The translations under genes and the position numbers were made by a program. The notes beneath the pieces were generated by a model, which was not told the DNA's origin, ran no database searches, and was given only the letters and a program-made list of their open reading frames with translations. Positions 9,961 to 40,457 of a DNA stretch of 54,978 bases are shown one piece after another; positions within the stretch are counted from its first letter, which is position 1; each line of letters begins with the position of its first letter. Origin of the DNA: a virus (Duplodnaviria; Caudoviricetes); the IMG/VR virus record IMGVR_UViG_3300012930_000006, positions 1 to 54,978 of that record. One strand, given 5' to 3'.

Positions 9961-9967
9961 GGTCGGT

Positions 9968-14102: not shown

Positions 14103-14111
14103 TCATAGAGG

Positions 14112-14870
14112 ATGGATGTCATGACCCGCATGATCTGGCGTGTGGTCGCGGCGGTAGGTATGATGATTGTCTCGGTTATGCCTATTCTGGCACAAAATAG
14201 TTGGGAAACGCCCGGAGGTTCGCGTGCCCCTGGTGGCGTAATGATGTGTTTGAATTCGCAGGGACAGGCGGTTCCGGTCGATCAATCTGGTGCATGCCCA
14301 AGTGGAGGCGGTGGGGGTGGTGGTGTCACGATCGCGGACGGTGCGGATGCAACAAAGGGCGCAAAGGCTGATAGTGCATGTGCGAGCGACATCGCAACGT
14401 GTACGTTGATATCGCTCGTCAAGCGTCTCAACCAAAGCATCACGACACTGATCGCTGCAGTGACGTCGTCGATTCCCGCCGGAACGTTTCGCATCGGGTA
14501 CACCAGCGACGATCCGTGCGCCAACCTGATTAAAATCCCGATCCCGATCAGCCAGGCGACCAGCACGCAGATCATTTCCGGGACCTCGGCGCAGAAAATC
14601 TATGTCTGTTCATTCGCGCTGATCTCTAGCCCGGGTGAAAACGTAAACCTTATCGAAGGAACTGGAAGCGTGTGCGCGACGGGATCGACCGCGATGCTGG
14701 GATCGACAACTGCAGCGAACGGATTGAGTATTCCGGCAAACGGCGGTCTCACACATGGAAGCGGTGCCGGAACGGTTGCTGGCGCGGTCGCAACGCCAGC
14801 CGACAATGTGTGCCTGACGCAGAGCGGAACGGCTCGGGTGTCGGGAGTCCTCAGCTATGTCAAGCAATAA
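14112..14870 (+). CDS. Putative virion accessory protein with signal peptide, 8 Cys
   Basis: N-terminus RMIWRVVAAVGMMIVSVMPILA|Q; Gly/Ser/Thr-rich beta-strand C-domain; lies in the head operon. Confidence 0.65.
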   Translation: MDVMTRMIWRVVAAVGMMIVSVMPILAQNSWETPGGSRAPGGVMMCLNSQGQAVPVDQSGACPSGGGGGGGVTIADGADATKGAKADSACASDIATCTLISLVKRLNQSITTLIAAVTSSIPAGTFRIGYTSDDPCANLIKIPIPISQATSTQIISGTSAQKIYVCSFALISSPGENVNLIEGTGSVCATGSTAMLGSTTAANGLSIPANGGLTHGSGAGTVAGAVATPADNVCLTQSGTARVSGVLSYVKQ

Positions 14871-14888
14871 CCAGTCCTCAGTGAACCC

Positions 14889-15629
14889 ATGCGCCGCTTG
14901 CTGACCATCTTTGCGCTGTTGCTGAGTGTTGTTGCGGCATATGCGCAGATCCCGCTGACCGGAGCAGGGCGGGGAACTCCGGGAGGAGGGGCAGCGGTCT
15001 TTGCCACCTATACACAGACCGACAACCCAGCGGCACAAGCGACGCCTGGAACTTCTACTGTTACATTTACAGCGGTCAATATTGGTACGGCGGTCTCCAA
15101 TCGGGTTGTCGTAATTACCTTCACGAATGCTGGTGTTATCGCGACCGCAATGACAATTGGTGGCGTGAACGCTACCAAGGCGGTCGAGGAGTCCAGTAGA
15201 GTATCATCGCTTCAAATTTGGTATGCGACGGTTCCGTCTGGGACGACGGCAAATGTCGTTATTTCATTTCCAAGCAACCCGACGAATTGCATTCTTGTTG
15301 CTGGAAATTTCAACAGCGGTGCATCGACAACACCAGCTAATACCCAAACTGGGCAGAGTGCATTATCAAATACGCAGGTATTAAATACGACTATACCAAC
15401 TAGTGGATTTGGTGTCATGGGAATCGTGACACTGAATGGAGTTGAAACACCAACATGGATTAATATGACGAATGTCGGCGGGGATACTACTACCAGCTCA
15501 AATGACGGGTCATCGCAAATTACATTATATACCGCTCATTCCATCACCGCTGGATCTCCTACTACCCTGACCGGAACATTGACAACCCCAACCCAGATTC
15601 ATTCGGTATCAGTGTCATGGGGTCCGTGA
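14889..15629 (+). CDS. Putative virion accessory protein with signal peptide, Thr-rich
   Basis: MRRLLTIFALLLSVVAAYA|Q; beta-rich and AT-richer DNA. Confidence 0.65.
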   Translation: MRRLLTIFALLLSVVAAYAQIPLTGAGRGTPGGGAAVFATYTQTDNPAAQATPGTSTVTFTAVNIGTAVSNRVVVITFTNAGVIATAMTIGGVNATKAVEESSRVSSLQIWYATVPSGTTANVVISFPSNPTNCILVAGNFNSGASTTPANTQTGQSALSNTQVLNTTIPTSGFGVMGIVTLNGVETPTWINMTNVGGDTTTSSNDGSSQITLYTAHSITAGSPTTLTGTLTTPTQIHSVSVSWGP

Positions 15630-17155
15630 TCCGCGCACTAGTTGTTGCTGCGGTCGCTCTCCTTTATTTCTCAAGCGAGCCTGCGACGACGTGGATACAT
15701 GGAGGTTTTACTTTCGATTCCACGTGGACGTGCTGGCGCACGCAGGCGTCTGGAGCCTGCCCGTTCACGGCTGGTCAATATTTTAATGCGACTGGCGACG
15801 GATCAACTAATGATGATACGGCCCTGGCCGCCATGATCGCTTATGGTGCTGCGCATAATCCGTCTCAGTTAAAGCTGTATTGGGGAAATGGTACAAACAG
15901 CGTCTTGGGCGGCACCAACATCATCAATTGGAGCCAAGCCAATAACAACGGTGTGCAGAATCTTTTGATCTGGGCGTACGGAGGAAAGGTCGACTACATA
16001 AACGTAGGGTTTCAGGCATTTCAGCAAAACAACTCCACGAGTGCGGCCATCAATACCGTGTCTGCTGGAGCGACCGCGCTTGTGGTTAATGATGGGAACG
16101 AAGGGCTATTTTCGTCCGGAGACATGATCGCCCTCACAGCCGATTGCCTGGACTTTGCGACCGGCGGATATCCGCCGACGTTTCAATTTCATCAGATCGC
16201 AAGAGTGACTAGTCGATCTAGCACAACAGTTAACATCGATGTTTCGACGATTGCCGGATACAAATCAACATATCCTGTCTGCGCCTTGGGTGGCAGCATG
16301 GGTTCAGGCGGTCCAGCGCGCATTTTCAAACTCGATCCGAGTTATGATTCAAACGTGGAAATTCGCGGCCTCACGTTACTCAATCCTGGCGCTTCTCAAT
16401 GGAACATTAATAGTCGTGTCGCGACGCTTTACGATGTAACGTTTCTCAACAGCTCGATCGGACCGAGCGCCAATCAGAACTTCACCTCATTTAATGGTAA
16501 CTTCCCTGTCGGCGCCGAGATCGACAAGGATGCTGATACGATGACGATCTCTGGCGGCACGATTGGGCAAATAGCGGTCCAAAGTGCGAGCCCTACCACG
16601 CTTAATCTGTTGAATTTGGCCATCAGTTGTTCAGTGAACGGCACGGCAATCAATACTACCATCAGAAACTCGACTGTCACCGCCGGCAGTTGCGACGGCC
16701 GAATCGCGCCAGGGCCAACGGGCTACGGTGGCGCTCAATCCTTGGTGGTCGACACTGTCACGTTTCCGGTAGCTACTGCGGACGCATGCGAGGTCGAAAC
16801 CGCAAACGTGTCATTTAGCAGTGGCGTATTTTCGATGTTGAAGTCAAAAAGCAACGCGATCAAAGACACGTTCTTTCGCTGTTTCGTTCCTGGCTTCAAA
16901 TACAAATTTGCATGGCATAATGCGGTGACGTCCAACTGCACCCCGCTGGCCGAGTTCACGGTGTCGGATATCAGCGAGGATGGCAGCAACTACAATGCGA
17001 CGATCTCAAATTGCAGTTGGGGTTCGTGCTCTGGAGCACTTCCGACACCAAGCTGCTCGGGCTCGCCGACGACCTACAGCCTCTACAACTCTCTGGCAAT
17101 CACGCAGACGAATATGGGCGGCTCGCCGAGCCTGCTTGGCTTCGCGGCGCCCTGA
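15617..17155 (+). CDS. Beta-helix/pectate-lyase-like spike protein with signal peptide, 12 Cys (start possibly GTG 15626)
   Basis: IRALVVAAVALLYFSSEPATT leader and the tailspike start motif FNATGDGSTNDDTAL. Confidence 0.65.
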   Translation: MGSVIRALVVAAVALLYFSSEPATTWIHGGFTFDSTWTCWRTQASGACPFTAGQYFNATGDGSTNDDTALAAMIAYGAAHNPSQLKLYWGNGTNSVLGGTNIINWSQANNNGVQNLLIWAYGGKVDYINVGFQAFQQNNSTSAAINTVSAGATALVVNDGNEGLFSSGDMIALTADCLDFATGGYPPTFQFHQIARVTSRSSTTVNIDVSTIAGYKSTYPVCALGGSMGSGGPARIFKLDPSYDSNVEIRGLTLLNPGASQWNINSRVATLYDVTFLNSSIGPSANQNFTSFNGNFPVGAEIDKDADTMTISGGTIGQIAVQSASPTTLNLLNLAISCSVNGTAINTTIRNSTVTAGSCDGRIAPGPTGYGGAQSLVVDTVTFPVATADACEVETANVSFSSGVFSMLKSKSNAIKDTFFRCFVPGFKYKFAWHNAVTSNCTPLAEFTVSDISEDGSNYNATISNCSWGSCSGALPTPSCSGSPTTYSLYNSLAITQTNMGGSPSLLGFAAP

Positions 17156-17211
17156 GCGCAATGACGGAACATGCATGGACTCGATGTCCGTGCTACACTC
17201 CGGCATGACAT

Positions 17212-17360
17212 AGATTCGTCCGCACCACGAAACGGTGCACGGCATTTCGGACCCGCCGACCATAGGGCCCGTCGCAGGCGACCGCGATATGGCGCAGCGC
17301 TCCATCACAGACCGGGCGCATAAATGCGGTCTGCCGTCATCACGACGATACCGTGAATCT
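17212..17360 (+). promoter_or_regulatory. Structured leader of the scaffolding gene with repeated loop motif
   Basis: Enclosing AGATTC/GAATCT and ACGGCA/TGCCGT pairings; hairpin loops ACGAAAC, GCGATAT and ACGATAC. Confidence 0.5.
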
Positions 17361-17377
17361 GAAAGAGGTTTTCCATC

Positions 17378-18481
17378 ATGGCCATTCGTGAAGTGGATGC
17401 CGAGGCGATCGGCAATGCGATCATCGCAACCGAGAAGGAAATCGCGGGAGATCCGTGGGGAATCGAAGAGGCTACTCTCGACGAGACGGGTGACCGTACC
17501 GTCGAGATGATGGGCGAGGGCCTCGAGGGCCAGCACGAGCCGGATGACGACGATGACGAAGGCGACGAGGATGACGAGTCCTCGGAGGCATCGGAATCGG
17601 AGGAAGGCGAGGGCGAAGCCGGAGAGGCTGCGGACAAGAGCGCCGATGGCGAGGCCAAGCCGGAACCCAAAGAGGGTGACGGCAAGGAAAAGCCACTGGC
17701 CGAGGTCGCGCCAGATTCGCGCGACCGTGTGCCCGCACGGCGTCTGCGCGAGCAGACCGATCGGACCAAGGCTGTGGAGGCCGAGCGTGATGCGCTCCGG
17801 CAGCAGCTCGAGGCCGAGCGGTCCGATTCAAGGAAGCAATTCGACACGCTCAACTCGCGTTTCGATGCGGTCCTGACTCAGCTCAAGCCACCCGCTCAGC
17901 AGCAGAACGGCGAAGCCAAGCCATCTGCGGTTCCGGATTTCTTCGAAGATCCCAACGCGTTCATTGCGCACCAGACCAAGCCGCTGCTCGACACCGTCTC
18001 GCAACTCCGCAACGACCTTGCGGCGCAGCGGGTCGAGACCAGCATGGCGATGGCTCACAGCAAGCATGGCGACAAGTTCGCCAAGGCTTACGAGGCTGTC
18101 ACCAAGCTTGATCCGCGCAATCCCGACGACAGGGCAACGGTGCAGCGGATTTACAGTTCCGCCAGTCCGGGCGAGGCACTTGTCTCCTGGCACGGCCGTA
18201 ACGAAACCCTGCGTCAGGTCGGAGATGATCCCGATGCGTATGCCGCGCGCTTGCGTAAGGAAGAGCGTGAGGCATTGATGAAAGACCCCGAGTTCCGCAA
18301 GCAGCTTGTCGAGTCGCTGCAAGCGGAGGCATCCACGGGCGATAATGGCAGAGCACGCACCACAGTCCGACTCCCGAAATCGTTGAACGGCGCGGCCGGC
18401 GGAAATGCCGGACGCAATGTGGCTCAGTTCGAGCACGACGATTCGGACAAGTCGGTCGCTGACTCAGCTTGGCGCACGTAA
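17378..18481 (+). CDS. Scaffolding protein
   Basis: Very acidic N-terminus, RVPARRLREQ coiled coil, PDFFEDPNAF; directly before the capsid gene. Confidence 0.85.
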   Translation: MAIREVDAEAIGNAIIATEKEIAGDPWGIEEATLDETGDRTVEMMGEGLEGQHEPDDDDDEGDEDDESSEASESEEGEGEAGEAADKSADGEAKPEPKEGDGKEKPLAEVAPDSRDRVPARRLREQTDRTKAVEAERDALRQQLEAERSDSRKQFDTLNSRFDAVLTQLKPPAQQQNGEAKPSAVPDFFEDPNAFIAHQTKPLLDTVSQLRNDLAAQRVETSMAMAHSKHGDKFAKAYEAVTKLDPRNPDDRATVQRIYSSASPGEALVSWHGRNETLRQVGDDPDAYAARLRKEEREALMKDPEFRKQLVESLQAEASTGDNGRARTTVRLPKSLNGAAGGNAGRNVAQFEHDDSDKSVADSAWRT

Positions 18482-18590
18482 CCGCTTTTCGATCGATACG
18501 AAACAGGCTGCCGTGCGTCCACGGGCGCGCGTGAAAGCACAAGTTTCTCGGGAATAGCGGCAACGGCGCGGAACAGAAAGGACCGCGGCT

Positions 18591-19754
18591 ATGGCCGTAA
18601 CGAATACGCAAGCCAATAATGTCCTGATCAAATTCCGGAAGGACATCTATCGCGAGTATGTTCGCGAGAACCTGTTCTCGCCCTACATGGGGCAGGACCA
18701 GACGGCAATCATCCGGGTCATCACCGACCTCGACAAGGGCGGTAAGCAAGGTGGCGAACAGATCAACATTCCGTTGATCGCGCGCCTCAATGCGGCCGGC
18801 GTCGGCAAGGGCGTGTTGCGCGGAAATGAAGAGTCGATCGACAACTACGGACAGCGCATGTGGATCGACTGGTCGCGCAACGCGATCGTCATGGACAACG
18901 CCGAGGAGCAGCGTTCGTCCGTCGATCTCTTCGCCGAGGCCAAACCGATGCTTTCGGATTGGGGCAAGGAGAAGCAGCGCGACGAAATCTGTGACGGGCT
19001 CTATGCGCTGCCCTCGACCGCGGCACCGGCTGGCCTCGGTTCGCCGGCGGGGCAGCGGGTCAACGGTCTGCTGTTCGATGCTGCAACGGCGGCCCAGCGC
19101 AACACCTGGATCACCGACAACGCGGATCGCATCCTCGTCGGCAACTCCAACACCGCGAACCTCAGCGCCGGAAACTTTGCGGCGTCGATGCTCAACGTGA
19201 CGCCCGCGATGGTGATCTCGGGTGCTCTCGTCAACCGCATGAAGCGCTCGGCGAAGAAGGCCGATCCGCGCATCCGTCCCTTCAAGCTCAAGGAAAACGG
19301 AACGGAATGGTTCGTGCTCTTCCTCGGTCAGGAACAGTTCCGTGATGCGCAGAACGACGCCTCGATCCTCGCCGCCAACCAGAACTCGCGCGCCCGCGAA
19401 AATCAGGGTTATCTCAAGAACCCGATCTTCGTCGACGGCGATCTGCTCTACAACGGCGTGATCATCCGCGAGATCCCGGAACTCTCGACCAGGGCGCCGG
19501 TATTCTATACGACCGCCGGTCTCGGCGGAACGCGGATCGCGCCGGCTTTCATGTGTGGTCAGACCGCGATGGCGTGGTGCTGGGGCAAGATGCCGACGCC
19601 GACCTTCCTCAAGGAGGATGACTACCAGTTCCTCCGCGGGGCAGGCATCAAGATGGCATATGGTATCGGCAAGGTCGCGAAGCTCAGCCCCGCCAACCTG
19701 TTCAAGGAGTGGGGCGTGTTCACGGGCTTCTTCTCGGCTACCGCCGACGCGTAA
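18591..19754 (+). CDS. Major capsid protein (DUF4043/N4-gp56-like)
   Basis: 387 aa; YVRENLFSPYMG, DLDKGG..GEQINIPLIARL, LRGNEESID, NPIFVDGDLLYNGVIIRE and EDDYQF. Confidence 0.9.
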   Translation: MAVTNTQANNVLIKFRKDIYREYVRENLFSPYMGQDQTAIIRVITDLDKGGKQGGEQINIPLIARLNAAGVGKGVLRGNEESIDNYGQRMWIDWSRNAIVMDNAEEQRSSVDLFAEAKPMLSDWGKEKQRDEICDGLYALPSTAAPAGLGSPAGQRVNGLLFDAATAAQRNTWITDNADRILVGNSNTANLSAGNFAASMLNVTPAMVISGALVNRMKRSAKKADPRIRPFKLKENGTEWFVLFLGQEQFRDAQNDASILAANQNSRARENQGYLKNPIFVDGDLLYNGVIIREIPELSTRAPVFYTTAGLGGTRIAPAFMCGQTAMAWCWGKMPTPTFLKEDDYQFLRGAGIKMAYGIGKVAKLSPANLFKEWGVFTGFFSATADA

Positions 19755-19838
19755 TCCCGATCGGTCGAAACCGCGGCGCGCCGATGCTGGCGCGTCGCCT
19801 TACCTCATCATCATCTTCGGCCGAAGGAGGCCATCACA

Positions 19839-20351
19839 ATGATCCGCAACAAGTTGATCCGCGGCGCGCTGGCGTGTGCCATCGTCGCAGCCTCGGCGTG
19901 GGGCGCCATCGCGCTCAATGTCGATCAGAACCGCGTCATGCCGGCGCGGCAGAACGTGACCCAGCAGACGAACTACTATCGTCTGAAAATCAACTTCAAC
20001 GATCCGAACATCTCGCAGCCGCAAAAGTTCGGAAAGTTCCTGCAGAACACGTTCATCTCGAGCGTGTCGTGTCACGTCACCACGGCTTTCAACGCCGCGA
20101 CGACGAATATCCTCACGATCGGCACGAACCCGACGACCACGGGCGAGATCGTCGCGGTTGGCGGTGCCAACAAGACGATCAACCTCTCGTCGGCAACCTA
20201 CCAGTCGGTCACGGCCGCGGGATCTCTCGGCCTGTCGACGACAAGCGATGCCGACCATACGCTATATGCCGCTTACAGCCAGACCGGCACCGCGGCGACG
20301 GCTGGTGCGGCGACGTGCATCATCGAGTTCGTGCCGAACAACGACATGTGA
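19839..20351 (+). CDS. Capsid decoration/cement-like protein with signal peptide
   Basis: Directly follows the capsid gene; HVTTAFNAATTNILTIGT motif; leader MIRNKLIRGALACAIVAASAWGAIA|L. Confidence 0.7.
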   Translation: MIRNKLIRGALACAIVAASAWGAIALNVDQNRVMPARQNVTQQTNYYRLKINFNDPNISQPQKFGKFLQNTFISSVSCHVTTAFNAATTNILTIGTNPTTTGEIVAVGGANKTINLSSATYQSVTAAGSLGLSTTSDADHTLYAAYSQTGTAATAGAATCIIEFVPNNDM

Positions 20352-20373
20352 GATGGGTGCAAACCAGAGACGA

Positions 20374-20401
20374 CCCGGCGACTACGGCCGCCGGGGTTTT
20401 T
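20374..20401 (+). terminator. Intrinsic terminator after the capsid/decoration genes
   Basis: CCCGGCG-actacggc-CGCCGGG followed by GTTTTT. Confidence 0.65.
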
Positions 20402-20431
20402 CCCGATCTGTTTTCGATAAGAGGCTTTCAC

Positions 20432-20944
20432 ATGGCGACTGCGCCAAGAACTTCGTCTGATATCAGGAACGAACCCGCGTCATTGCTGCCGCCGGCCACG
20501 ACCGCGCCTAAAGAGGTGGGGTCGCCCGCAGCCGACAAAAAAGGGGAATCCGAACACGTCACATACCTTCCCTCGGAAGGAGACCCGATCAAGACGACGT
20601 GGATGGGCATTACGTTTCATGCGAATGTGCCGAAAGAGGTGACCAATCAAGCCTTGATCGCCAAGGCCAAGCAGAACCGGTTTTTCAAGGTCGGTGATTT
20701 CAACCCGGCGCGGGACCGCGTATCAGTCGAGAATACGCCGTTGCCAAAGACGTCGGAGCAGTACCGCGCGCACGCCGTCGCTTGGATCAAGACGGTCGAG
20801 AGCGTCGACGATCTCGACACCCGATGGCAGTCCGAAGAGACGCTGCGCATGCACTGCGGCGTCGGCACCGACGACATCGAATGGCTGCAGGATTTCCTCG
20901 GTCCGAAGCGTCACGAGCTCAAGAGACGTGGATTGCCGGGGTAA
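20432..20944 (+). CDS. Hypothetical head-associated protein
   Basis: RBS GAGG; VTYLP..GDP..TTWMGITFHANVPKEV..ALIAKAKQNRFFKV. Confidence 0.65.
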   Translation: MATAPRTSSDIRNEPASLLPPATTAPKEVGSPAADKKGESEHVTYLPSEGDPIKTTWMGITFHANVPKEVTNQALIAKAKQNRFFKVGDFNPARDRVSVENTPLPKTSEQYRAHAVAWIKTVESVDDLDTRWQSEETLRMHCGVGTDDIEWLQDFLGPKRHELKRRGLPG

Positions 20945-20950
20945 TCCGCG

Positions 20951-21346
20951 ATGGTCAGCGCATATCGTACGCAAAACGACCTCATCACCCAGACACTCAA
21001 GAACCTCGGGGTGATGTCGGCGGGCAATGCCGCCGACCCGGAGGATTTTGCGTATGTCAAAGAAAACGTCGACCCGACGATCCGGATGCTGGCGTCGCTC
21101 GACATCTGCTACATCGGCGACGTCGAAACCATTCCCGGAGAATTGTTCTCGGCGCTCGCCAATGTTCTCGCGGGCGAATGTGCGGACAAGTTCGGGTCGA
21201 CGACAGAGGATCGGATTTCGCTCAAGAACAACGGTCTAGGCGGCGCTGGAAACGTGCCTGTTGGTGCCGGGTCCGGCGCACAAATCCTCCGCCAGATCAA
21301 CCGCGGGCGCCCGACTTACGAGACGCTACGGACGATGTCGTTCTGA
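20951..21346 (+). CDS. Head-tail adaptor (P22 gp4-like)
   Basis: TQNDLITQTLKNLGVMSAGNAADPED helical pattern; position before the gp10-like gene. Confidence 0.7.
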   Translation: MVSAYRTQNDLITQTLKNLGVMSAGNAADPEDFAYVKENVDPTIRMLASLDICYIGDVETIPGELFSALANVLAGECADKFGSTTEDRISLKNNGLGGAGNVPVGAGSGAQILRQINRGRPTYETLRTMSF

Positions 21347-23082: not shown

Positions 23083-23084
23083 GC

Positions 23085-23366
23085 ATGGCAGATCAGGGTC
23101 TAGACGGTTCGATTCAACCGTTCAATGCGGACGAGAAGTTCACCGACTACGACGAATCGAGAACGAAAGTCGTACGAATCGCGCCGGCAAAAACCGATGC
23201 AGAAAATGCGGCAAAAATTCGGGGCGAGATCACTTTCGAGCTCGAAAAGATGTGCAAGATGATCGACTCCGCAAAGGCGTCGGGATTCGATGTTGCGTTC
23301 CAATTGGCGAAGGATGGCCTTGGTCGCCAGTTCATCAACAGCCTGTTGATATCGAAGCCGTTCTGA
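23085..23366 (+). CDS. Hypothetical protein
   Basis: ATG 2 nt after the previous stop; tightly packed. Confidence 0.55.
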   Translation: MADQGLDGSIQPFNADEKFTDYDESRTKVVRIAPAKTDAENAAKIRGEITFELEKMCKMIDSAKASGFDVAFQLAKDGLGRQFINSLLISKPF

Positions 23367-23367
23367 C

Positions 23368-23613: not shown

Positions 23614-23623
23614 GGATCAAATT

Positions 23624-24544
23624 ATGCCTAATGGTGCGGGTTACGCGGATGCACTTCAACCGTTTGTGACGGGACGTTCTGACGTACAGGACACACCCAG
23701 ACCTTATGTTGGAGCAATACAACCATTCATTGGTTATTCTGACGGAATTACAACGCTTGGAAATGTTCAAGGAAATATTAACGAGCAACTTGGTTCCATT
23801 TGGGGTGGAATAAAAAATATAGGTAGAAATTTAGGGCAGGGTTTAGCGGATACTGGTCAAGCCCTCACAAGCCCCCCGATTCGGCCGCCGGCCGGTTCTA
23901 TCACCAACGACGCTGGGTTTATCTCTCAGGGGGGCGCGCGACCAGAGGAATGGCAGGCATTTGTGCGAGACCAAAAGTTGAGAAATGATCTAGGTCCGAG
24001 TATTGCATTGGGAATGATCGGTAGTGGAAGCCCATTTTCTGCTCGAGGTTCCCTTGGAGTGGCTGGCGGAAAGCTTACACGCTCTGAAATGGATACAATT
24101 CGAGATGCGCGTTTTGAAAACAAGATCAAAGAAGAGCCAACCCAGATATTTAAAGATTTTATGACGGGCGATACGCCGGTGAGATCGATCGAAGAGTCAG
24201 GGGCTTCGGCTGAGCGCCTGGCCGCGACTCATCGTCAATTGAACGCTGAAACTGCGGGACGTATTGATGAAATCAAGATGGATAATATCGCTAAGTCCGA
24301 TCAAATTGGTGGAATTGTCGGACGACATCTCAAGAATCTCTACGAGGCTGGAGTAAATAGAGAAAAGTTCGAGAATGTGCTTCAGGGGATACGAGAAGAT
24401 AAATCAATTTCTGCGGCAGATTTACGGACCATCTCGCAGACTTACGGGAATCATGTTTACAAAGGCTCAAAAGAAGCCATGCTAGACCAGATTGAGAAAT
24501 CGTTCATCCGAGATGCGCGTTTCATGAACAAGATAGGCCAATGA
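23624..24544 (+). CDS. Hypothetical protein, AT-richer, internal repeat
   Basis: 306-aa ORF with IRDARFENKI / IRDARFMNKI repeat. Confidence 0.6.
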   Translation: MPNGAGYADALQPFVTGRSDVQDTPRPYVGAIQPFIGYSDGITTLGNVQGNINEQLGSIWGGIKNIGRNLGQGLADTGQALTSPPIRPPAGSITNDAGFISQGGARPEEWQAFVRDQKLRNDLGPSIALGMIGSGSPFSARGSLGVAGGKLTRSEMDTIRDARFENKIKEEPTQIFKDFMTGDTPVRSIEESGASAERLAATHRQLNAETAGRIDEIKMDNIAKSDQIGGIVGRHLKNLYEAGVNREKFENVLQGIREDKSISAADLRTISQTYGNHVYKGSKEAMLDQIEKSFIRDARFMNKIGQ

Positions 24545-24553
24545 GGTTCTAAC

Positions 24554-25435
24554 ATGGGCATCTTCGACATCTTCTCGAACAAAAACGCGCAGGATGCCGC
24601 GAACGCGCAGATCGCCGGTATCAACAAGGGATACGGCGATCTCTCGACGCAGTTCGGTCAGGGGCGCGATGCGCTCACTACCAACTACACCGCGGGACTG
24701 CAGCCCTATTTGCAGAACTATCAGACCGCAACGGCTGGCACGACCGCGCTGGGAAATGCGCTCGGTCTGAATGGCCCACAGGGAAACCAAGCCGCGACGG
24801 CCGCATTCTGGGCAAACCCGGCGATTCAATCGCAACTCGACATCGGCTCGCAAAACGTGCTGCGCAATCAGGCGGCAACGGGGCAGCTTAATTCGGGAAA
24901 GACTAATGTCGACTTGCAGAATTATGGCCAGCAAGTCGCATCGCAGGGCTGGAACAACTACATCTCGCAACTGCAGCCGTTCCTCGGTGCGGGCAATGCT
25001 GCGGCCGGCGGTATAGCGGGCGTCGACACCGGTCTTGGTGCTGGCCTCAATCAGTCGTTCATGAACCAGGGCAATGCGGCTTATGGGGCGCAGACCGGCA
25101 TCGGCAACGCGAACGCAAATGCGGACTTGGCGAAGAACGCCGCAAGCGGAAACGCCGTCAATGCCCTGATGCAGGGCGCCAATCTTGCGGCCTTCGCATT
25201 CTCGGACGAACGGCTCAAGGAGGACATCGAACCTGTCGGCGAGCTCTACGACGGCAGCAACGTCTACCGCTACCGCTATCGGGGCGATCCGACCCCGCAT
25301 ATTGGCCTGATCGCGCAAGAGGTCGAGGTGCGCACGCCTGAGGCGGTCATCGAGGTTGGTGGCTTCAAGGCGGTCGACTATCGCAGGGCCACACAATACG
25401 CGTCAAAACTGGCACAGTTCGTCGAGGCGGCTTGA
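24554..25435 (+). CDS. DNA ejection protein (gp7-like) fused to a peptidase S74 chaperone domain
   Basis: Gly/Ala/Asn/Gln-rich body, then FSDERLKEDI...YRYRY...GLIAQEVE...VDY. Confidence 0.8.
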   Translation: MGIFDIFSNKNAQDAANAQIAGINKGYGDLSTQFGQGRDALTTNYTAGLQPYLQNYQTATAGTTALGNALGLNGPQGNQAATAAFWANPAIQSQLDIGSQNVLRNQAATGQLNSGKTNVDLQNYGQQVASQGWNNYISQLQPFLGAGNAAAGGIAGVDTGLGAGLNQSFMNQGNAAYGAQTGIGNANANADLAKNAASGNAVNALMQGANLAAFAFSDERLKEDIEPVGELYDGSNVYRYRYRGDPTPHIGLIAQEVEVRTPEAVIEVGGFKAVDYRRATQYASKLAQFVEAA

Positions 25436-25438
25436 TCC

Positions 25439-27301: not shown

Positions 27302-29806
27302 ATGCCGACTTTCGAAATCAAACATGCGGACGGTCGTACTTTTCGGGTTAAGGCGCCCGATCAACAGGCGGCCGCGGATGCGATTGACGAGATTCCCCAT
27401 GGCCAGCCAATCTCTCAACTCGGCGCTTTCACTGAAGGCGTGAGATCCGGCGTTACGGCTGGCTTTTCCGATGAACTCGCGGGCCTCAAGGCTGCATCTG
27501 GAGTGCCGAAGGGCATCAGGGATCTCACGGATCTATCACCGATGACGTTGCCAGCATCGGCCGCAACCGCGCTCATTGGTGGCGCGAGGCTCGGCTACGA
27601 GAAATTGACCGGACAGCCCGGCGAAGCCACCAAAGGATATGAGGAAAGCCGAGATGAAGTGCGCGAGCGGCAGAATGCCGCGCGCGAGCAGTTTCCAAAA
27701 ACCAACATCGCTGGGCAGGTTTTGGGCTCGGTTGCATTGCCAGTCGGCGGCGCGGCTGGGGCTGCAACACTACCGATGCGGATCGCGCGCGGCGCTGGCG
27801 TTGGTGCGGGCGTTGGAGCTCTAAGTGGTGCCGGTGAGGGCGAGGGGGCGGCCGATACCGCATTGCGGGCTGGCATCGGAACCGTAGCGGGTGCGGCGCT
27901 CGGTGCGGCTGGTCCTCCGATTGCGGAAGGCGTCGGCCGGCTGGTATCGAAGGTCGCAACTCCGGCGGTCAATATGGCGCGTAGCATATTCTCGCCACGG
28001 GAAGAGGCCGCGCGGCAGGTTGTCACCGGGGTCGAGCGAGACATTGTGGCGGATCCCGCGGCTACGCGGCGGCTGACTCCAGAGGAATGGGCGCGCGCTC
28101 GCGAACAAGGTCAGCCCGTGACCGTCGCGGATATGGGTGGCGATCTTACCCGCCGGCTTGCCGATGTTTCGAGCATCGTCTCTCCGGAAGGTGGAACGGC
28201 GTTGCGCACAGCGATTGATCAGCGTCTCGAAAGTCAATCTCCTCGGCTTGCCGATTGGATGCGCGGTTTGGTGACACGGACGGGTACCGAAGTGGCCGAG
28301 CCGCAGCCGGCGCGCTTTGGCCAGATCATCCGGGATGTGGCGGGCGGCGCCAACGCAACGCGCGATCTTGAGCAGTTGCAGCAGGGTGCGCGTCAAGCTA
28401 ATCGTCCTGCGTATCAACGAGCCTATGAATCCGGTGATCGGGAAATCTGGTCGCCAGAGCTCGAGCGGCTCACCAGCGCCCCGTCAATTCGCCAGGCGAT
28501 GCAGGCGGCGGTCAATAAGTGGAAGGATTGGCAGGTCGTCGACGGGTTCGGCGGCGCCAATCCAGGCGCAATGGTCGAGCGTGGGATGCTCCGATTCAAC
28601 GCGGGCCGCACAGGGGTTCCGACGTTTCCGAATCTGCAATTTTGGGACTACACCGCTCGCAATATCGCGGACAAGGCGGAAGCTGCGCGACGTAGCGGTC
28701 GCACGCAACTTGCGGCACAATTGGGTGGGCTTGAACGTCAGATCAAAACCGAACTCGATCGCATCGTTCCACAATATCAGGCGGCGCGACAGGGTGCTGC
28801 AGCATTCTTCGGCGCGAACGATGCGCTTGAGGCAGGGCGGATGTTCGTCCGATCAAATTCCAATATCGGTGAGGCCCGGCAAGCGTTGGCGAGGATGTCG
28901 GCGCCGGAGCGTGAATTGTTCTCTCGCGGCTATGCCTCGGAAATGGCCGATCAGGTCGAGCGCGCTGGCGACCACGGAAACCTGCTCGGTTCGTCGATGT
29001 TTTCCAGCGAGGCGGCGCGGCAAAAGAATCAACTCGCGATGGGCGCTCAGCGCGCGGAACGATTCGAAAGAGAGATCGCACCCGACCGGATGTTTCATAC
29101 GTTTGAGGGTGCGACAAGCCCGTTTGAGGCGGGGCAAAATTTCGTCGGGGCGAGCCAGCGCTATGGTATTCCGGCGGCGCGGCGGGCGATGTCACAAATG
29201 ACTCCGGAGCAGCGCGAGGCGTTCCAAAACGGCTATGTGTTTCGGCTGGTCGAAAAACTTGGGGCGACGGGTGATCGGCGGAGTATCGTCAATCAAATTG
29301 CGCAGTCGCCAGCGGCACGCGCCGAGATCCGCATGGCGATCGGACCACAGCGTGCCGATGAATTGGAGTCTCGCTTGCGCGTCGAGGGAATCATGGATCT
29401 CCTACGTAATGCGGTCTCGGGGAATTCGTGGACTGCCAGGAGGCTCTATGACGTCGGTTTGGCGGGTGGGGCCGGCTTGGGTCTTGAGGGCGGCGTTCAC
29501 AGCGATCCGAAAGACATTGCGATCGGCGGTGTGATTGCGGCGCTTTCGAGTGGAGGAAAGCGGGTGAACGCGAATGTCATGCGCCATGTGGCCGAACTAC
29601 TCGTCTCGAATGATGCTGGCCAACTTGCGAAAGGCGTACAGATCGTCGCGCGCACGCCGCGCCTGCTCGAGGCCCTGCGGGCGACAGATCGCCGGCTCGC
29701 GGCCATTGCGGGCGAGCAAACGCCAAATCTGCCGGCGGTGCAGGCCGGCGGCATAAGCCGCGCCGAAGGCGATGAGAAACAGGTTCCACGGCCACCAGCC
29801 CAATAG
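27302..29806 (+). CDS. Large DNA ejection protein (gp16-like position)
   Basis: 834 aa; glycine-zipper segments, AGFSDELAG, and an internal duplicated helical unit. Confidence 0.7.
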   Translation: MPTFEIKHADGRTFRVKAPDQQAAADAIDEIPHGQPISQLGAFTEGVRSGVTAGFSDELAGLKAASGVPKGIRDLTDLSPMTLPASAATALIGGARLGYEKLTGQPGEATKGYEESRDEVRERQNAAREQFPKTNIAGQVLGSVALPVGGAAGAATLPMRIARGAGVGAGVGALSGAGEGEGAADTALRAGIGTVAGAALGAAGPPIAEGVGRLVSKVATPAVNMARSIFSPREEAARQVVTGVERDIVADPAATRRLTPEEWARAREQGQPVTVADMGGDLTRRLADVSSIVSPEGGTALRTAIDQRLESQSPRLADWMRGLVTRTGTEVAEPQPARFGQIIRDVAGGANATRDLEQLQQGARQANRPAYQRAYESGDREIWSPELERLTSAPSIRQAMQAAVNKWKDWQVVDGFGGANPGAMVERGMLRFNAGRTGVPTFPNLQFWDYTARNIADKAEAARRSGRTQLAAQLGGLERQIKTELDRIVPQYQAARQGAAAFFGANDALEAGRMFVRSNSNIGEARQALARMSAPERELFSRGYASEMADQVERAGDHGNLLGSSMFSSEAARQKNQLAMGAQRAERFEREIAPDRMFHTFEGATSPFEAGQNFVGASQRYGIPAARRAMSQMTPEQREAFQNGYVFRLVEKLGATGDRRSIVNQIAQSPAARAEIRMAIGPQRADELESRLRVEGIMDLLRNAVSGNSWTARRLYDVGLAGGAGLGLEGGVHSDPKDIAIGGVIAALSSGGKRVNANVMRHVAELLVSNDAGQLAKGVQIVARTPRLLEALRATDRRLAAIAGEQTPNLPAVQAGGISRAEGDEKQVPRPPAQ

Positions 29807-29834
29807 GGCAGCGGTCACCAGATAGGCGAAAAAC

Positions 29835-30875
29835 ATGCCTCTCCCTACCATATCCACCCTCCGACGGATAGTCTTGACAATTGCCATTTTACTTGCTCCG
29901 GGCGCAAGCCACGGGGCGGGCTCGCTTCCTGTTGCCCTGGCGCAACAGGTCGATGTCAACGGGCGGCCACTGGTCGGGGCATTGCTCTACCTCTACGTCG
30001 TCGGGACTGTTGCCCAACCGCAACTAGCGTTTCAGGATACGGGCCTCACCGTGCCATTGCCGTGGCCCGTGCAGGCCGATGCGAACGGCCGGCTGCCGAT
30101 GTTCTATCTGGCGGACGGGGCGATCCATGCCCGCCTGACGGACGCCAACGGGTCGGTACAATTCGACTATCCTTCGATGCTGGTAATCGGCCCTTCGGGT
30201 GGCGGTTCCGCCGGTGCCGGTGTCGATCCGACCACGATATTCTCGACCGGAGACATAAAATTCAGACCAACTGGAGAGACCCTTTCGGGATGGGTAAAGC
30301 TTAACGGACTGACGATCGGATCTTCGCTCTCGGGCGCAACTGGGCGCGCCAATGCCGACACGCAAGCGTTGTTCATTTATTTGTGGACAAACTGCCCGGA
30401 TGCGCATTGCCCAGTGCTCAGCGGGCGGGGGGCGACTGGCCTCGCGGACTTCAATGCCAACAAGCAGATCACGTTGCCTGACTGGAGAGCTCGCGTCATG
30501 GTTGGTCTCGACGACATGGGCACGAGCGCGGCAGGTCGGTTCACCGGCGTGCCATTCTCTGGTTCAGATACGGCAACGACGCCGGGTGGCACTGGGGGAG
30601 AGAACACACATACGCTCTCGGCTGCGGAAATCCCGGCGCACAATCATGGTATAACGGAGCCGAACGGAGGCTTGGGACATTTTCATTTCAACCCGGACAC
30701 GGTGACGGTTCAATCCGGTGTGGGTGCCAACGTGCTTGGAATCGCCGGAGGTGGAGTTACAAACGGAACGTCGAAATCCGTGACAGGAATTACCATCAAT
30801 AATAGCACGGGCGGTGGAGGCGCACATAACGTGATGCAGAACTTTCAACTTGGCACTTGGTATATGCGGCTCTGA
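29835..30875 (+). CDS. Tail fibre: head-binding-like N-domain plus tail-collar domain, with signal-peptide-like leader
   Basis: DVNGRPLVGALLYLYVVGT..PVQADANGR; GDIKF..GWVKLNG..LPDWRAR..GGENTHTL..EIPAHNH; leader RRIVLTIAILLAPGASHG. Confidence 0.8.
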   Translation: MPLPTISTLRRIVLTIAILLAPGASHGAGSLPVALAQQVDVNGRPLVGALLYLYVVGTVAQPQLAFQDTGLTVPLPWPVQADANGRLPMFYLADGAIHARLTDANGSVQFDYPSMLVIGPSGGGSAGAGVDPTTIFSTGDIKFRPTGETLSGWVKLNGLTIGSSLSGATGRANADTQALFIYLWTNCPDAHCPVLSGRGATGLADFNANKQITLPDWRARVMVGLDDMGTSAAGRFTGVPFSGSDTATTPGGTGGENTHTLSAAEIPAHNHGITEPNGGLGHFHFNPDTVTVQSGVGANVLGIAGGGVTNGTSKSVTGITINNSTGGGGAHNVMQNFQLGTWYMRL

Positions 30876-30877
30876 CG

Positions 30878-31294
30878 ATGAACCGAAATCCGAAAACTTT
30901 GGTGCTACCGGAGTTCTCTAATCGGGAGGATCTATATCTGCCGTTCGGCGTATTCGACGACGACACGGGCGACCCGGTTGATATGACCGCGCTGGGTTGG
31001 ACATTCCAATTCGAGATTCGCCGCCTTCCGCCGCATTGGGCCGGAAATATCATCGCGGGCCCGTGGTACGACGACGATTTTCCGACGCCAATCATAATTC
31101 TTGCGCTCGGCACGGGGCCAAACTTCGTCAACGTGGTCGACGTTGGACAAGGGCTGATCTGGGTGAGCGAATCGAACATGGTCAAGCTGCGGCACCGCAC
31201 CTATTCAGCGGCGCTGGTGGGCAATGACGGGACGCGTCAGTTCCAACTGTTCAAGGCGACGCTGCCGATGCAATATGGGGGGGTTACGAACTAA
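30878..31294 (+). CDS. Tail accessory protein
   Basis: DDDTGDPVDMT..WTFQFEIRR pattern; lies in the fibre cluster. Confidence 0.55.
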   Translation: MNRNPKTLVLPEFSNREDLYLPFGVFDDDTGDPVDMTALGWTFQFEIRRLPPHWAGNIIAGPWYDDDFPTPIIILALGTGPNFVNVVDVGQGLIWVSESNMVKLRHRTYSAALVGNDGTRQFQLFKATLPMQYGGVTN

Positions 31295-31836
31295 TGGCTA
31301 GCCCGGTCAACCTTCGCATCTCGGCGCCAATCCCGTTTCCCGCGCTCGTTCGTGGTGCCGCGCCTATCGCGCTCACGAAGGCAAACGGGGTTTGGACGGT
31401 CTCGCTCGACGTCCAGAATCTCGGCGCGGTCGTTCCGCTGATCGCGCAATATGCCAGCGACTATGTTGTGGTTTGGGATTCGGTCGGCCTGACATTCGTC
31501 AAAGTGTCGCTAACCGGTCTAGGACTCGGCGGCGCGCGGCTGCAGCGTTCGGTGCTCGCGAGTCCGATCGTGATTGCGGCGAATGATCAAATCATAAACT
31601 TCAACATCAACGCAGGAGCTCCAACCTGCACGCTGCCATCGTCGATATCCCGAAACGGAGTTCCGTTGACGTTCCAGGATGTCGGCGGTCATGCCGCCGC
31701 GCACAATCTCACATTCGCGTTCACCGGAGGTGAACTCGCGGACGGTCTCGCCGCTCCGGCCATTACAGTGAACTACGGAAAGATGACTTTCACCCCGATG
31801 AATGATGGCGTCAATACGGGATACTCTATCTCATGA
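31294..31836 (+). CDS. Tail fibre-related protein
   Basis: TCTLPSS..NGVPLTFQDVGG..NLTF..GELADG pattern; coupled on both sides. Confidence 0.6.
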   Translation: MASPVNLRISAPIPFPALVRGAAPIALTKANGVWTVSLDVQNLGAVVPLIAQYASDYVVVWDSVGLTFVKVSLTGLGLGGARLQRSVLASPIVIAANDQIINFNINAGAPTCTLPSSISRNGVPLTFQDVGGHAAAHNLTFAFTGGELADGLAAPAITVNYGKMTFTPMNDGVNTGYSIS

Positions 31837-33848
31837 AACGGATGTTTTTCGGTTTTGCAATCTCTGTTGCGATTGCTCTCTCTTCTGGTGGAGTCTACGC
31901 ACAACAGCCTGCCGCAGGAAGGATCCAGATCGGGCAAGGTGCGGCGTTGCCCGCGTGGCTGGCGATGACGGGGGACTGCTCGCTTGCAAGCACGGGCGCG
32001 ATCATATGCTTGAAATCAAACGGTACGGCGTTTGGCACCGCCGCATTCCAGAACACCGGAACGTCTGGTGCGACGATTCCATTTCTCAACGGCGCGAATA
32101 CATGGTCCGGCACCAACATCTGGAGCGCTGACGGATATTTCAAATCTGGTCGGCCATGGGCCGACGTGCGCGCTTACGGCGCGGTCGGAGATGGTGTGAC
32201 CGACGACAGTGCCGCGTTTGCAAACGCTGCCGCCGCGGTCATTGCGCTGGCTGGTCAAGGTGGTGTCGTCTACGTCCCTCCGGGAACCTATTGTCTGTTT
32301 TCCGGATTCACCGTCAATAGCGCCGTCTCAGTCAATCTGATCGGGGCTGGATGGCAGAATGAGATTCTGAGTGTTTGCGGGCATAACGTCGCGCTCGTTA
32401 CGCTCGGAGGTGGCCGTCATTCGGCGCGTGACCTGTTTCTGCTCGGCTATAATGGATCGAATGCTTCCGCCACATCGGCGACGATTCATACGACATCGAC
32501 CTGCGTCGACTGTCTCATTTATCACGACTATATTGGCCTTGGTTATTTCGGCATTTGGAATGAGGGTGTCGATACCGAGATATGGACCTCGAATGTCATC
32601 AATACCTATAACACCGCGGTCTATGATTCAGCCAACGCGATGTGGCTCGTTCGATCTAAGATCGACAATCCATGGTCGGTCAGCGTTCCTGCAATCGGTG
32701 CCAGTTTTTCATCTTGGACTAATGCGCACGCTTATGTCGTTGGGGATGTCGTATCGTCTGGCGGATTTTATTTTCAGTGTTCGCAAAGCGGTACATCCGG
32801 AGGGTCGTTTCCCGCTGGACCGTATGTTTACGGAATAACGATCGTCGACAATGGGGCGCGCTGGCTGCTCGCGACCGCGACGAATGCTCATGGTCTTGAC
32901 ATCACGACAGGCGCGTCCGAGACGCACGTCCTGCAAAGCGATTTCTCCGGTGCCTACGGCGGGTCGTCGATCAGGATCGACAACGACGGTGCGGGGACTG
33001 CGCCGTTCCTGACCGCGATAACCGACAGTGTCGTGAGCCAATCTGTCAACAACTCGCTCAACGCGGTTGCTGGCTCTGGACTCATGCTAAAAGGCAATGA
33101 GATGGCCGGCGGTCTAGCTGCTGGCGGCTCGACGCTTGCGTTCCAGCTCGCGTGGGTTGGGGATGCAACGGTCGTTGGAAATAGCTTTATCAGCGCGCCA
33201 AACTCCATATTTCTGGGGGCTGGAGTTAATACATCGATCGTCGGCAATACGCTCGGATCGACTGCCGGCATTACGGTCGCCGCTGGTGTCACGGATTTCA
33301 CGATCTCCGCGAACCAGCCGTCGGCGAAGTATGGAGGGTCGTGCAGCATTACGGTCGCGGCCGGCGCGAGTACTCGCTATTCGATCGTCAACAACAATCC
33401 GGGTTGCACGATCACGAATGCGGGCACTGGCGCCAGTCAATGCGTGTCGGCAAATGGGACTTGCACGCATCAGATCATTGCGCTGACCTCGGGGTCTGGC
33501 ACTCTAGCGCAGAACTCGACTTCATTCATGCTTGGCTTTCTCCCAGCCGGCGGCTCGGCAGAGGCCGTCGCTTCGGCGCTCTGTCCGTTGGCCGGAACCT
33601 TCAAGAACCTCTATCTTCAATCCAATGCGCCGGCGGCTGGCCAGACGCTCACCGCTACATGGCGCGTGAACGCGGGAGACACGACCATCACCTGCGCGAT
33701 CACCGGAACCGGGACGACGTGCAACGACACGACGCACACGGCTGCCTGCACGGCGGGGCAATCCTACACGTTGAAGCTTGTCACGTCGGCGACATCGGGA
33801 ACAATTACCTCCGTCAACGGTGGGATCGAGTTTGACAACAGCCCTTGA
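31833..33848 (+). CDS. Tailspike (pectate-lyase-like beta-helix) with signal peptide and CBM-like insert
   Basis: DVRAYGAVGDGVTDDSAAF..VVYVPPGTY; leader MKRMFFGFAISVAIALSSGGVYA|Q; 15 Cys. Confidence 0.85.
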   Translation: MKRMFFGFAISVAIALSSGGVYAQQPAAGRIQIGQGAALPAWLAMTGDCSLASTGAIICLKSNGTAFGTAAFQNTGTSGATIPFLNGANTWSGTNIWSADGYFKSGRPWADVRAYGAVGDGVTDDSAAFANAAAAVIALAGQGGVVYVPPGTYCLFSGFTVNSAVSVNLIGAGWQNEILSVCGHNVALVTLGGGRHSARDLFLLGYNGSNASATSATIHTTSTCVDCLIYHDYIGLGYFGIWNEGVDTEIWTSNVINTYNTAVYDSANAMWLVRSKIDNPWSVSVPAIGASFSSWTNAHAYVVGDVVSSGGFYFQCSQSGTSGGSFPAGPYVYGITIVDNGARWLLATATNAHGLDITTGASETHVLQSDFSGAYGGSSIRIDNDGAGTAPFLTAITDSVVSQSVNNSLNAVAGSGLMLKGNEMAGGLAAGGSTLAFQLAWVGDATVVGNSFISAPNSIFLGAGVNTSIVGNTLGSTAGITVAAGVTDFTISANQPSAKYGGSCSITVAAGASTRYSIVNNNPGCTITNAGTGASQCVSANGTCTHQIIALTSGSGTLAQNSTSFMLGFLPAGGSAEAVASALCPLAGTFKNLYLQSNAPAAGQTLTATWRVNAGDTTITCAITGTGTTCNDTTHTAACTAGQSYTLKLVTSATSGTITSVNGGIEFDNSP

Positions 33849-37785: not shown

Positions 37786-37792
37786 GGACCGC

Positions 37793-40445: not shown

Positions 40446-40457
40446 AGGAGATCCTCA

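Follow-up and report, generated by a model that had tools for sequence, protein, structure and literature searches.

Putative Sec leaders on cement, fibre and spike-type proteins of an uncultured podophage lineage, and a possible completion of its virions at lysis

Textbook accounts place the assembly of tailed phages wholly in the reducing cytoplasm. The locus studied here raises the question of why six genes in the structural module of such a phage should encode proteins that begin like Sec preproteins, and where these proteins would end up. The genome, IMG/VR record IMGVR_UViG_3300012930_000006, is that of a P22-like podophage; its 54,978 bp make up the entire viral record, which is rated complete, and the whole of this stretch is called the window below. 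An exact direct terminal repeat of 123 bp (window 1-123 and 54856-54978) fits a circularly assembled or terminally redundant complete genome. An earlier interpretation made from the letters alone (the sequence-only reading) had proposed that the outer virion parts are exported, disulfide-bonded and possibly glycosylated in the periplasm, and then join particles at lysis. Comparison with related sequences leads us to conclude that the leaders are very probably real, cleavable Sec signals on at least the cement, fibre, 14112, 14889 and spike proteins; our answer to the second half of the question is more tentative. The six open reading frames (ORFs) are named by their first nucleotide, and a slash marks the predicted cleavage site.

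14112 to 14870, plus strand: cargo protein 1; its leader (ILA/QNS) is followed by a Gly-rich linker, a helix and, at the C-terminus, a beta-sandwich knob that has conserved Cys
14889 to 15629, plus strand: cargo protein 2; leader (AYA/QIP), then a Thr-rich beta protein
15617 to 17155, plus strand: cargo protein 3; depolymerase-like right-handed beta-helix whose hydrophobic N-terminus is a possible signal-anchor
19839 to 20351, plus strand: capsid cement (decoration) homologue, a preprotein, named from its fold and its position directly after the capsid gene; leader residues 1-25 (nt 19839-19913, AIA/LNV), mature jellyroll 26-170 with Cys78 and Cys160
29835 to 30875, plus strand: tail fibre with a collar/T4-gp10-like C-terminal part (PHROG 8763 'tail protein'); leader residues 1-27 (nt 29835-29915, SHG/AGS), the site being set by comparison with relatives
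31833 to 33848, plus strand: pectate-lyase-fold spike/depolymerase (PF12708, E 8.9e-12); leader residues 1-23 (nt 31833-31901, VYA/QQP), 15 Cys in the mature part

The six ORFs exist at these coordinates, and the N-termini and cysteine counts quoted for them earlier are correct (8 in 14112, 1 in 14889, 12 in 15617, 2 in 29835, 15 in 31833, and one in the leader plus two in the mature part of 19839). All six begin with basic and then hydrophobic residues, and a site of the AxA type closes the leader in five. Leaders were predicted with home-made heuristics complemented by comparative evidence. A loose heuristic, modelled on the n-, h- and c-regions of a signal peptide, was positive for 14 of the 76 ORFs in the gene list, all six included, the other eight being mostly small membrane- or lipoprotein-like products at 37-41 kb. 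A strict heuristic accepted only leaders in which a charged n-region precedes 12 or more core residues without charge and in which the residues at -1 and -3 are small. From 11804 to 35155 the plus strand has 21 ORFs of 80 aa or more, and five of them passed (14112, 14889, 19839, 29835 and 31833); none of the window's portal, scaffold, capsid, hub, needle or ejection proteins was positive. The strict heuristic was also applied to the distinct sequences in blastp clusters of the plus-strand ORFs from 118 related loci plus the window (1535 ORFs), with the following numbers of leader-positive members per family.

Capsid: 1/72
Hub: 1/72
Scaffold: 0/65
Portal: 0/48
Needle: 0/46
Ejection proteins, two families: 0/38 and 0/29
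ORF 31294 family: 0/9
ORF 30857 family: 0/8
Cement: 41/51
Fibre: 15/24
ORF 14112 family: 7/9
Two cargo families not found in the window: 11/11 and 6/7

The leader is tied to particular families rather than to composition, and chance is excluded, since the inner-virion families are 0-2% positive against 41/51 for cement and 15/24 for fibre; the leaderless state of the portal, scaffold, capsid, hub, needle and ejection proteins, first described in the window, therefore holds in relatives too. That the leaders are an artefact of mis-called starts or chance hydrophobic N-termini is a reading to which we give very little credence. It could draw on the 9 positives that the loose heuristic gave among 126 non-gene ORFs 100 aa or longer, and on the absence of a clear Shine-Dalgarno (SD) sequence before 14889, 29835 and 31833, but it is at odds with the contrast between families (0-2% against 62-100% leader-positive), with the recurrence of the same architecture in 50 independent cluster representatives, and with the conserved residues that a downstream start would remove. 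Translation of the cement gene appears to start at the leader, because an SD-like motif lies upstream of the leader start in 34 of 40 cement homologues and AAGGAGG stands 8 nt upstream of the leader ATG of 19839. A true start downstream of the leader, which would undo the case for export, is thereby excluded for 19839.

The cleavage site can be followed most closely in the cement family. Leaders of about 24-39 aa, freely varying in sequence, are present in 44 of 50 distinct homologues, with Ala at -1 in 42 of the 44 and Ala, Val or Ser at -3 in 43. Sequence conservation begins exactly at the site, with a conserved mature start directly after the leader, and the six leaderless homologues have their Met at the same position as this mature start. 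In the fibre family, PHROG 8763 matches residues 27-345 of 29835, that is, from the predicted mature start on (E 1.4e-48; PHROG 8469 matches at E 2.1e-8, and PF21939, at 21.2 bits, falls under its cutoff of 27). Among 20 aligned fibres, 14 have leaders ending in AxA before (A/Q)GT and six are leaderless; four of these six start with M/L-AGT at the mature residue, and two distant ones have other N-termini. The comparison with leaderless homologues, suggested earlier as a check, thus finds the start at the mature residue in the leaderless cement proteins and in four of the six fibres. Family specificity, variable sequence, AxA before a conserved N-terminus and leaderless starts at +1 are how cleavable Sec signals behave. 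The leader states of cement and fibre are uncoupled within genomes, as seen in loci L020, L045, L061 and L074, which combine a cement leader with a leaderless fibre.

Two other kinds of export signal were considered and set aside. We favour Sec over twin-arginine translocation (Tat) because the twin arginine is not conserved: RR occurs in the 14889 and 29835 leaders, but most cement and fibre homologues have K or a single R. A lipobox ([LVI][ASTVI][GAS]C where the leader ends) was flagged in none of the six, lipobox-like motifs having been flagged only in 37366, 41139 and 48911 (minus strand). The same sites bear on the idea that uncleaved signal-anchors, or segments like those of signal-arrest-release (SAR) proteins, tether the products to the inner membrane, on its periplasmic side, until depolarisation. 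The hydrophobic N-terminus of 15617, which has no AxA-type site, looks more like such an anchor, and Sec- or SAR-exported endolysins are an established precedent for late proteins of tailed phages being kept outside the cytoplasm (accessible part of PMC6116005). Yet the near-invariant small residues at -1 and -3 in cement, the AxA sites in the fibre, the 14112 family and the spike, and the leaderless homologues and conservation that begin precisely at the site all speak for cleavage, and we consider retention by uncleaved anchors unlikely.

Exported proteins are biased to even numbers of cysteines, and the cement family follows this bias. In close relatives, after three rows cut by contig ends were dropped, an even count of at least two in the mature part was found in 34 of 41 leader-bearing members against 1 of 6 leaderless ones (Fisher p = 0.003), and the cysteines occupy at least five different covarying column pairs. 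Searching 1.84 billion cluster representatives with the mature-domain profile gave 1052 matches at E <= 1e-3 (353 at E <= 1e-10). The best 150 of the 1052 were sorted and, with 20 partial or ambiguous sequences set aside, 130 were classified, 50 with a hydrophobic N-terminal extension and 80 leaderless. In this sample of the best matches, even counts of at least two occur in 41 of the 50 leader-bearing proteins (2, 4 or 6 cysteines) against 7 of the 80 leaderless ones (Fisher p = 7e-18, ancestry ignored), and the distinct column patterns divide into 17 even and 2 odd against 7 even and 19 odd (p = 5e-5). On the tree of the 130 representatives, leader state changes at least 10 times. The near-confinement of paired cysteines to leader-bearing cement proteins fits folding in an oxidising compartment, and upholds for this protein the disulfide bonding proposed earlier. 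Leader-bearing fibres have 2-6 cysteines and leaderless ones 0-2 (Mann-Whitney U test on the counts, p = 0.001), with column pairs 95/102 seen 5+5 times and 109/141 seen 7+7 times. As far as sequence comparison can carry it, export with disulfide bonding is well supported for cement and weaker for fibre. The earlier remark that most of the six have paired cysteines accordingly stands for the cement family, weakly for the fibre, and not for the tailspike family, in which cysteines do not discriminate.

What, then, is 19839? Its identification draws on its surroundings as well as on its fold, and the following features of the window are needed here.

12096 to 14102, plus strand: P22-type portal, leaderless (PF16510, E 3.3e-81), left border of the cargo slot
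17378 to 18481, plus strand: scaffolding protein, by position, right border of the cargo slot
18591 to 19754, plus strand: major capsid protein (PF13252, E 2.4e-37; PHROG 334), presumed binding partner of the cement protein
20374 to 20395, plus strand: strong intrinsic-terminator-like hairpin (7 G-C pairs and a T run) that closes the capsid-cement unit, in a scan that overall was not above shuffles

An AlphaFold2 (AF2) model of 19839 from 40 sequences (mean predicted local distance difference test score, pLDDT, 84.3) has an N-terminal helix and a beta sandwich. Its three significant Foldseek matches in the PDB are capsid chains of Pam1, KHP30 and GP4 (E 3e-5 to 2e-4, probability 1.00). In VIA-align the top four matches, chains 8h89_J, 7dn2_1, 7eel_H and 7dou_4, are all cement chains, with Z scores of 9.8, 9.7, 9.6 and 8.0 and root-mean-square deviations of 3.2-4.1 over 111-138 residues; the next match scores 7.1. 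The cements of Pam1 (7EEL), KHP30/KHP40 (7DN2, 7DOU), GP4 (8H89) and BPP-1 (3J4U, Z 5.3) thus share the modelled fold of 19839, and the solved cements, eight-stranded jellyrolls of about 125-155 aa, share its mature size. The alignment to the GP4 chain starts at model residue 24, the predicted mature start being 26. In Pam1 the gene after the homologous capsid gene is annotated as cement, the same order as in the window. Because of the jellyroll matches and the place directly after the capsid gene, we are confident, at the level of a structural model, that 19839 is a cement-protein homologue with a Sec leader, and the earlier label of decoration protein is confirmed by fold. The solved cements, that of Pam1 among them, are leaderless, as are 80 of the 130 classified members of the wider 19839 family, unlike the window protein and the other 50, which bear a leader and paired cysteines.

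The gene keeps its place in the lineage. By tblastn, cement homologues occur in 57 of 80 capsid-anchored loci and in 53 of the 68 in which 900 nt or more follow the capsid gene; blastp clustering places a more divergent member in 10 of the 15 remaining loci with room. At 0.84, the guanine-plus-cytosine content at third codon positions (GC3) of 19839 equals the value for the capsid gene. When profiles were compared, the cement alignment showed no similarity to 14112 or to 14889, and the full cement profile had no significant match among PDB sequences, the best being PmoB at E 0.055, aligned through the leader. Against cultured phages, tblastn with the mature cement and with a leader-bearing representative gave no match, and a leaderless representative matched Rhizobium phage RHph_Y1_10 only. 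A predicted complex of capsid and mature cement protein scored 0.00 in a run without controls and weighs neither way. After the cement gene comes a member of a conserved family (about 180 aa, represented 76 times in relatives), which in the window (20351-20951) is hidden inside a long alternative-frame ORF (19709-20944).

The explanation that we regard as the best of those considered, with doubt and confidence in equal measure, is that outermost virion-type proteins are made as Sec preproteins and virions are completed at lysis. The set would comprise the jellyroll cement 19839, the collar-domain fibre 29835, the beta-helix spike 31833, and the swappable cargo 14112, 14889 and perhaps 15617. 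These would be exported through SecYEG and cut after AxA by signal peptidase I, as conserved sites and leaderless homologues starting at +1 suggest. They would then fold and form disulfides in the oxidising periplasm, to which the paired cysteines point strongly for cement and weakly for fibre. The cytoplasm would build DNA-filled heads with portal, hub, needle and the leaderless anchor 31294, and the two pools would be kept apart until the cell lyses or its inner membrane is opened by the holin. Cement would then bind the expanded capsid, fibre and spike would dock on the tail, and assembly would be finished in the dying cell. The compartment of folding seems not to be critical, because leader-bearing and leaderless members coexist in one family, a coexistence that fits late-attaching virion parts.

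Docking after lysis is plausible because tailspikes and decoration proteins can join finished heads in vitro, as P22 tailspike and phage L Dec do. P22 tailspike gp9 is added late and, in vitro, to tailless heads, an attachment that ends assembly and does not depend on any cytoplasmic factor. Like gp9, 31833 is a beta-helix spike at the end of a P22-type tail module; it differs in its Sec leader and in having no recognised head-binding domain, and it may depend on the separate anchor 31294. We lean slightly towards placing cement and fibre on virions. For the spike and the three cargo proteins the same destination is possible but doubtful.

The principal rival holds that the proteins are exported without becoming virion parts: they would be periplasmic or surface depolymerases, lectin-like binders or receptor blockers, with a cement-like protein exapted among them, and would act in phage exclusion, in the loosening of capsule or exopolysaccharide (EPS) before release, or in surface conversion. 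We hold this to be a serious possibility, although a rather improbable one. The cement gene speaks most directly against it, through its retained place after the capsid gene and its capsid-like GC3; moreover, we know of no role for a cement protein away from the capsid. Cement and fibre members that are leaderless and start at the cleavage position would be useless in the periplasm, and without fibre and spike the needle would be the only other evident receptor-binding protein. The rival finds its support mainly in the cargo slot between portal and scaffold, a hypervariable site typical of accessory genes, and in the spike. Among 48 loci that hold both border genes (loci not de-duplicated), the slot has at least one ORF in 40 and at least one leader-positive ORF in 28; its 91 distinct ORFs fall into 51 families, 24 of which have leader-bearing members.

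The three ORFs that fill this slot in the window are, by prediction, fibre- or spike-like exported proteins. The 14112 family has nine members, with a mature N-terminus conserved after the site and four conserved cysteines in the C-terminal domain. The AF2 model of 14112 has an overall pLDDT of 63.9, with 80-88 in the knob, which matches caudoviral proteins of about 105-120 aa in BFVD, some of them named virion structural protein (E 1e-6 to 1e-4; template modelling (TM) score by target 0.65-0.78); its match to tail-needle knobs in the PDB is weak (E 3e-3). The Atlas features and structure of 15617 match Pect-lyase/GH28-related clusters (TM 0.57-0.67), and none of the loci holds a relative of it. 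For 14889 a single relative was found; it too bears a leader, and in L100 it occupies another cargo site, behind the spike gene. Variable presence, a trait of morons, is displayed by 14112, 14889 and 15617 and not by cement (57/80) or fibre, and the virion membership attributed to the three by the sequence-only reading is not borne out, the ORFs lying as they do in the hypervariable slot. A scan of 13900-20500 with the sigma-70 consensus found 2 promoter-like and 6 terminator-like sites, against 2.7 and 6.6 in shuffles, and none flank the trio on the plus strand; this gives no sign of the separate transcription units that accessory genes might have. In most relatives a leaderless family of about 105 aa (28 members, for example L119:8232-8597 in the prophage of Bradyrhizobium sp. 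YR681) lies between cargo slot and scaffold; it is missing in the window, where the gap from 15617 to the scaffold gene is only 223 nt.

The lambda genes lom and bor are morons of this kind, exported, encoded in the late structural operon and variable between relatives. The slot of the window lineage resembles them; the difference is that the folds of its cargo, fibre knobs and beta-helices, are those typical of receptor-binding proteins of virions, and that cement and fibre are core genes. Bacteria, for their part, make exported tailspike-fold enzymes, a point in favour of a non-virion role: according to the accessible part of PMC7949094, WceF of Pantoea stewartii is a right-handed beta-helix with a cleavable export signal that acts on extracytoplasmic polysaccharide. 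WceF differs in having a Tat signal and a chromosomal EPS cluster as its setting (same part of PMC7949094), the leaders of the window being Sec-type and in a phage structural module.

Two small genes stand between the fibre and the spike.

30857 to 31294, plus strand: leaderless small protein of the tail module, conserved as the neighbour of the fibre, with the synteny fibre-30857-31294 in at least 8 loci
31294 to 31836, plus strand: leaderless candidate virion-anchor module just before the spike; its N-terminal 93 aa are fused to another protein in L098

The order fibre, 30857, 31294 and then a large variable protein recurs, and this last protein bears a leader in the window and in L096, L100, L101 and L103. 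In L098 (9670-12048) the 93-aa module of the 31294 type is fused to a leaderless, beta-helix-like protein of 792 aa with two C-terminal repeats and no Pfam match, and because of this fusion we think that 31294 is probably a virion-anchor module. A search of 5.8 billion proteins found 39 spike homologues, 13 of them leader-positive; homologues match PF12708, PF13229 or PF05048, in keeping with a right-handed beta-helix. Three leader-bearing ones (P0018-P0020) share the post-leader module of the window spike and have unrelated C-termini, an arrangement that resembles receptor-binding proteins by analogy. Another homologue with a leader, P0017, is encoded on an unrelated viral contig of 64 kb, where it closes a structural module. 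Additional contig scans placed the spike in 3 loci and the 27302 protein in 9 distant loci, and found no viral-contig locus for P0010. L129, an unrelated phage contig of 58 kb, has an apparent tail module in which at least three large ORFs, of 306, 814 and 424 aa, bear leaders, and export signals on fibre-like proteins may reach beyond the lineage.

A number of observations weigh against completion of the virions with exported parts. The cement identity of 19839 comes from a modelled fold and synteny; profile comparison found no sequence similarity between the cement alignment and the Pam1 cement, and tblastn found the leader-bearing protein in no cultured phage. The raw association of leader with paired cysteines is inflated by shared ancestry, because an independent-pairs test that controls for phylogeny, with four supported pairs, was not significant (median p = 1). 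In the fibre, an even count of at least two cysteines occurs in 12 of 14 leader-bearing and 3 of 6 leaderless members, a difference that is not significant either (p = 0.13). Homologues of 14112, 14889 and 15617 are found in 4, 0 and 0 of the 80 capsid-anchored loci, the cargo ORFs have a lower, accessory-gene-like GC3 (0.46-0.61), and 15617 failed the strict heuristic. The spike has no match to Head_binding or another recognised N-terminal domain; its leaderless homologues have a classic fibre N-terminal domain in the place of the window's leader, and the mature N-termini of the leader-bearing proteins at the spike position differ between genomes, with no evident docking motif. Cysteine density does not separate leader-bearing from leaderless spike homologues (p = 0.068) and the window spike has an odd count (15), so that the cysteine argument once made for the tailspike falls away. 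Finally, Pfam, PHROGs and NCBIfam recognised no endolysin, holin or spanin in 35.9-43.7 kb. The few or absent relatives and lower GC3 of the cargo ORFs and the spike's missing head-binding domain would be expected of non-virion proteins.

The lysis step of the proposed scheme is an assumption, since the genome yielded no recognisable endolysin or holin. In the region 35940-43670, which may be an unusual lysis cassette, several small ORFs encode membrane or leader-bearing products (37366, 39150, 39780 and 41139, the last with a lipobox-like motif), and ORF 38137-39153 is esterase/lipase-like (PHROG 21992, E 1e-10). The suggested glycosylation of the exported proteins depended on one upstream gene.

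7927 to 9321, plus strand: Wzy_C (O-antigen ligase/polymerase-type) membrane protein, PF04932 at 34.0 bits (cutoff 31.7); an accessory gene

Homologues of it were found in only 2 of 118 loci (L069 and L073), in different places, most loci reaching only 10 kb upstream of the capsid gene. Within the stretches covered, the gene does not co-occur with the leader-bearing set, and we drop glycosylation by this enzyme from the scheme.

The lineage itself lies far from cultured phages. The best matches of the capsid protein among them have 26-32% identity (cyanophage Pam1, 32%), and megablast found no match in cultured phages to window 12096-20400. Scanning with the capsid yielded 80 viral contigs of the same kind, with identities of 62-82%, as well as 7 related loci in bacterial genomes or metagenome-assembled genomes (MAGs), including Bradyrhizobium sp. 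YR681, B. oligotrophicum S58, Pseudolabrys and Roseiarcus. Because capsid relatives sit in such genomes and MAGs, the sequences identify the lineage as temperate podophages of Bradyrhizobium-type Alphaproteobacteria, with relatives that are prophages of Bradyrhizobium and other Rhizobiales. Other products of the window are a hub protein that matches PHROG 578, a needle that includes an S74 chaperone domain, and two ejection-type proteins of large size.

Some further features were noted in passing. Adjacent tRNA-Met (CAT) and tRNA-Pro (TGG) genes lie near the left genome end (179-331). A 455-aa protein between terminase and portal (9929-11296) has homologues in 25 loci at a median identity of 56%, and no Pfam, PHROG or NCBIfam match. 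DNA methyltransferase-like genes are found at 1772-3112 (PHROG 359, E 1e-30) and 41599-42723 on the minus strand (PHROG 67, E 7e-76). ORF 23624-24544 in the tail module (306 aa, GC3 0.41) has a homologue in 0 of the 80 capsid-anchored loci and is probably a recent acquisition. The 127-aa product of 48911-49294 (minus strand) has a lipobox-like leader, yet it matches PHROG 478, a recombination directionality factor (E 7e-52), so that leader and annotation clash.

Virion proteins with cleaved Sec leaders are familiar from the Ff phages, whose pVIII and pIII are made in this way and whose pIII requires periplasmic disulfides. Ff phages are non-tailed and are extruded through the envelope, unlike the scheme proposed here, in which DNA-filled icosahedral heads would form in the cytoplasm. 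Among tailed phages, the endolysins fOg44 Lys44 and P1 Lyz are exported by the host Sec system before lysis and act upon holin action (accessible part of PMC6116005); these are lysis enzymes, and the leader-bearing proteins of the window are virion-type. A full-text search of the literature, mostly outside subscription journals, so that a precedent may exist there, found no report of a Sec leader on a tailed-phage cement, decoration or tail-fibre protein, nor do the accessible parts of PMC6116005, PMC7949094, PMC10386132, PMC3556154 and PMC11447400 report one. The nearest precedents in these sources, as far as their accessible text goes, are the Sec- or SAR-exported endolysins and the Tat-exported WceF.

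Our overall proposal, which we advance tentatively, is that an uncultured and widespread lineage finishes its virions outside the cytoplasm, with exported, disulfide-stapled cement, fibres, spikes and cargo attaching after the holin has acted. More than a third of the classified cement representatives have predicted export signals, and the claim is testable, the relatives being prophages in culturable Bradyrhizobium strains. Should the proteins prove not to be virion parts, a capsid protein fold would have been recruited to a periplasmic role, which would likewise be new. If the proposal is true, the annotation of signal-peptide ORFs in structural modules, now usually dismissed as morons, would change, and tailed-phage capsids would offer a natural means of displaying proteins that contain disulfides. 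The slot between portal and scaffold would be a cassette site for exchangeable host-range determinants that attach after lysis. The disulfide-stabilised shells of soil phages would find an explanation, and a part of tailed-phage virion assembly would be able to shift to the periplasm or to the moment of lysis.

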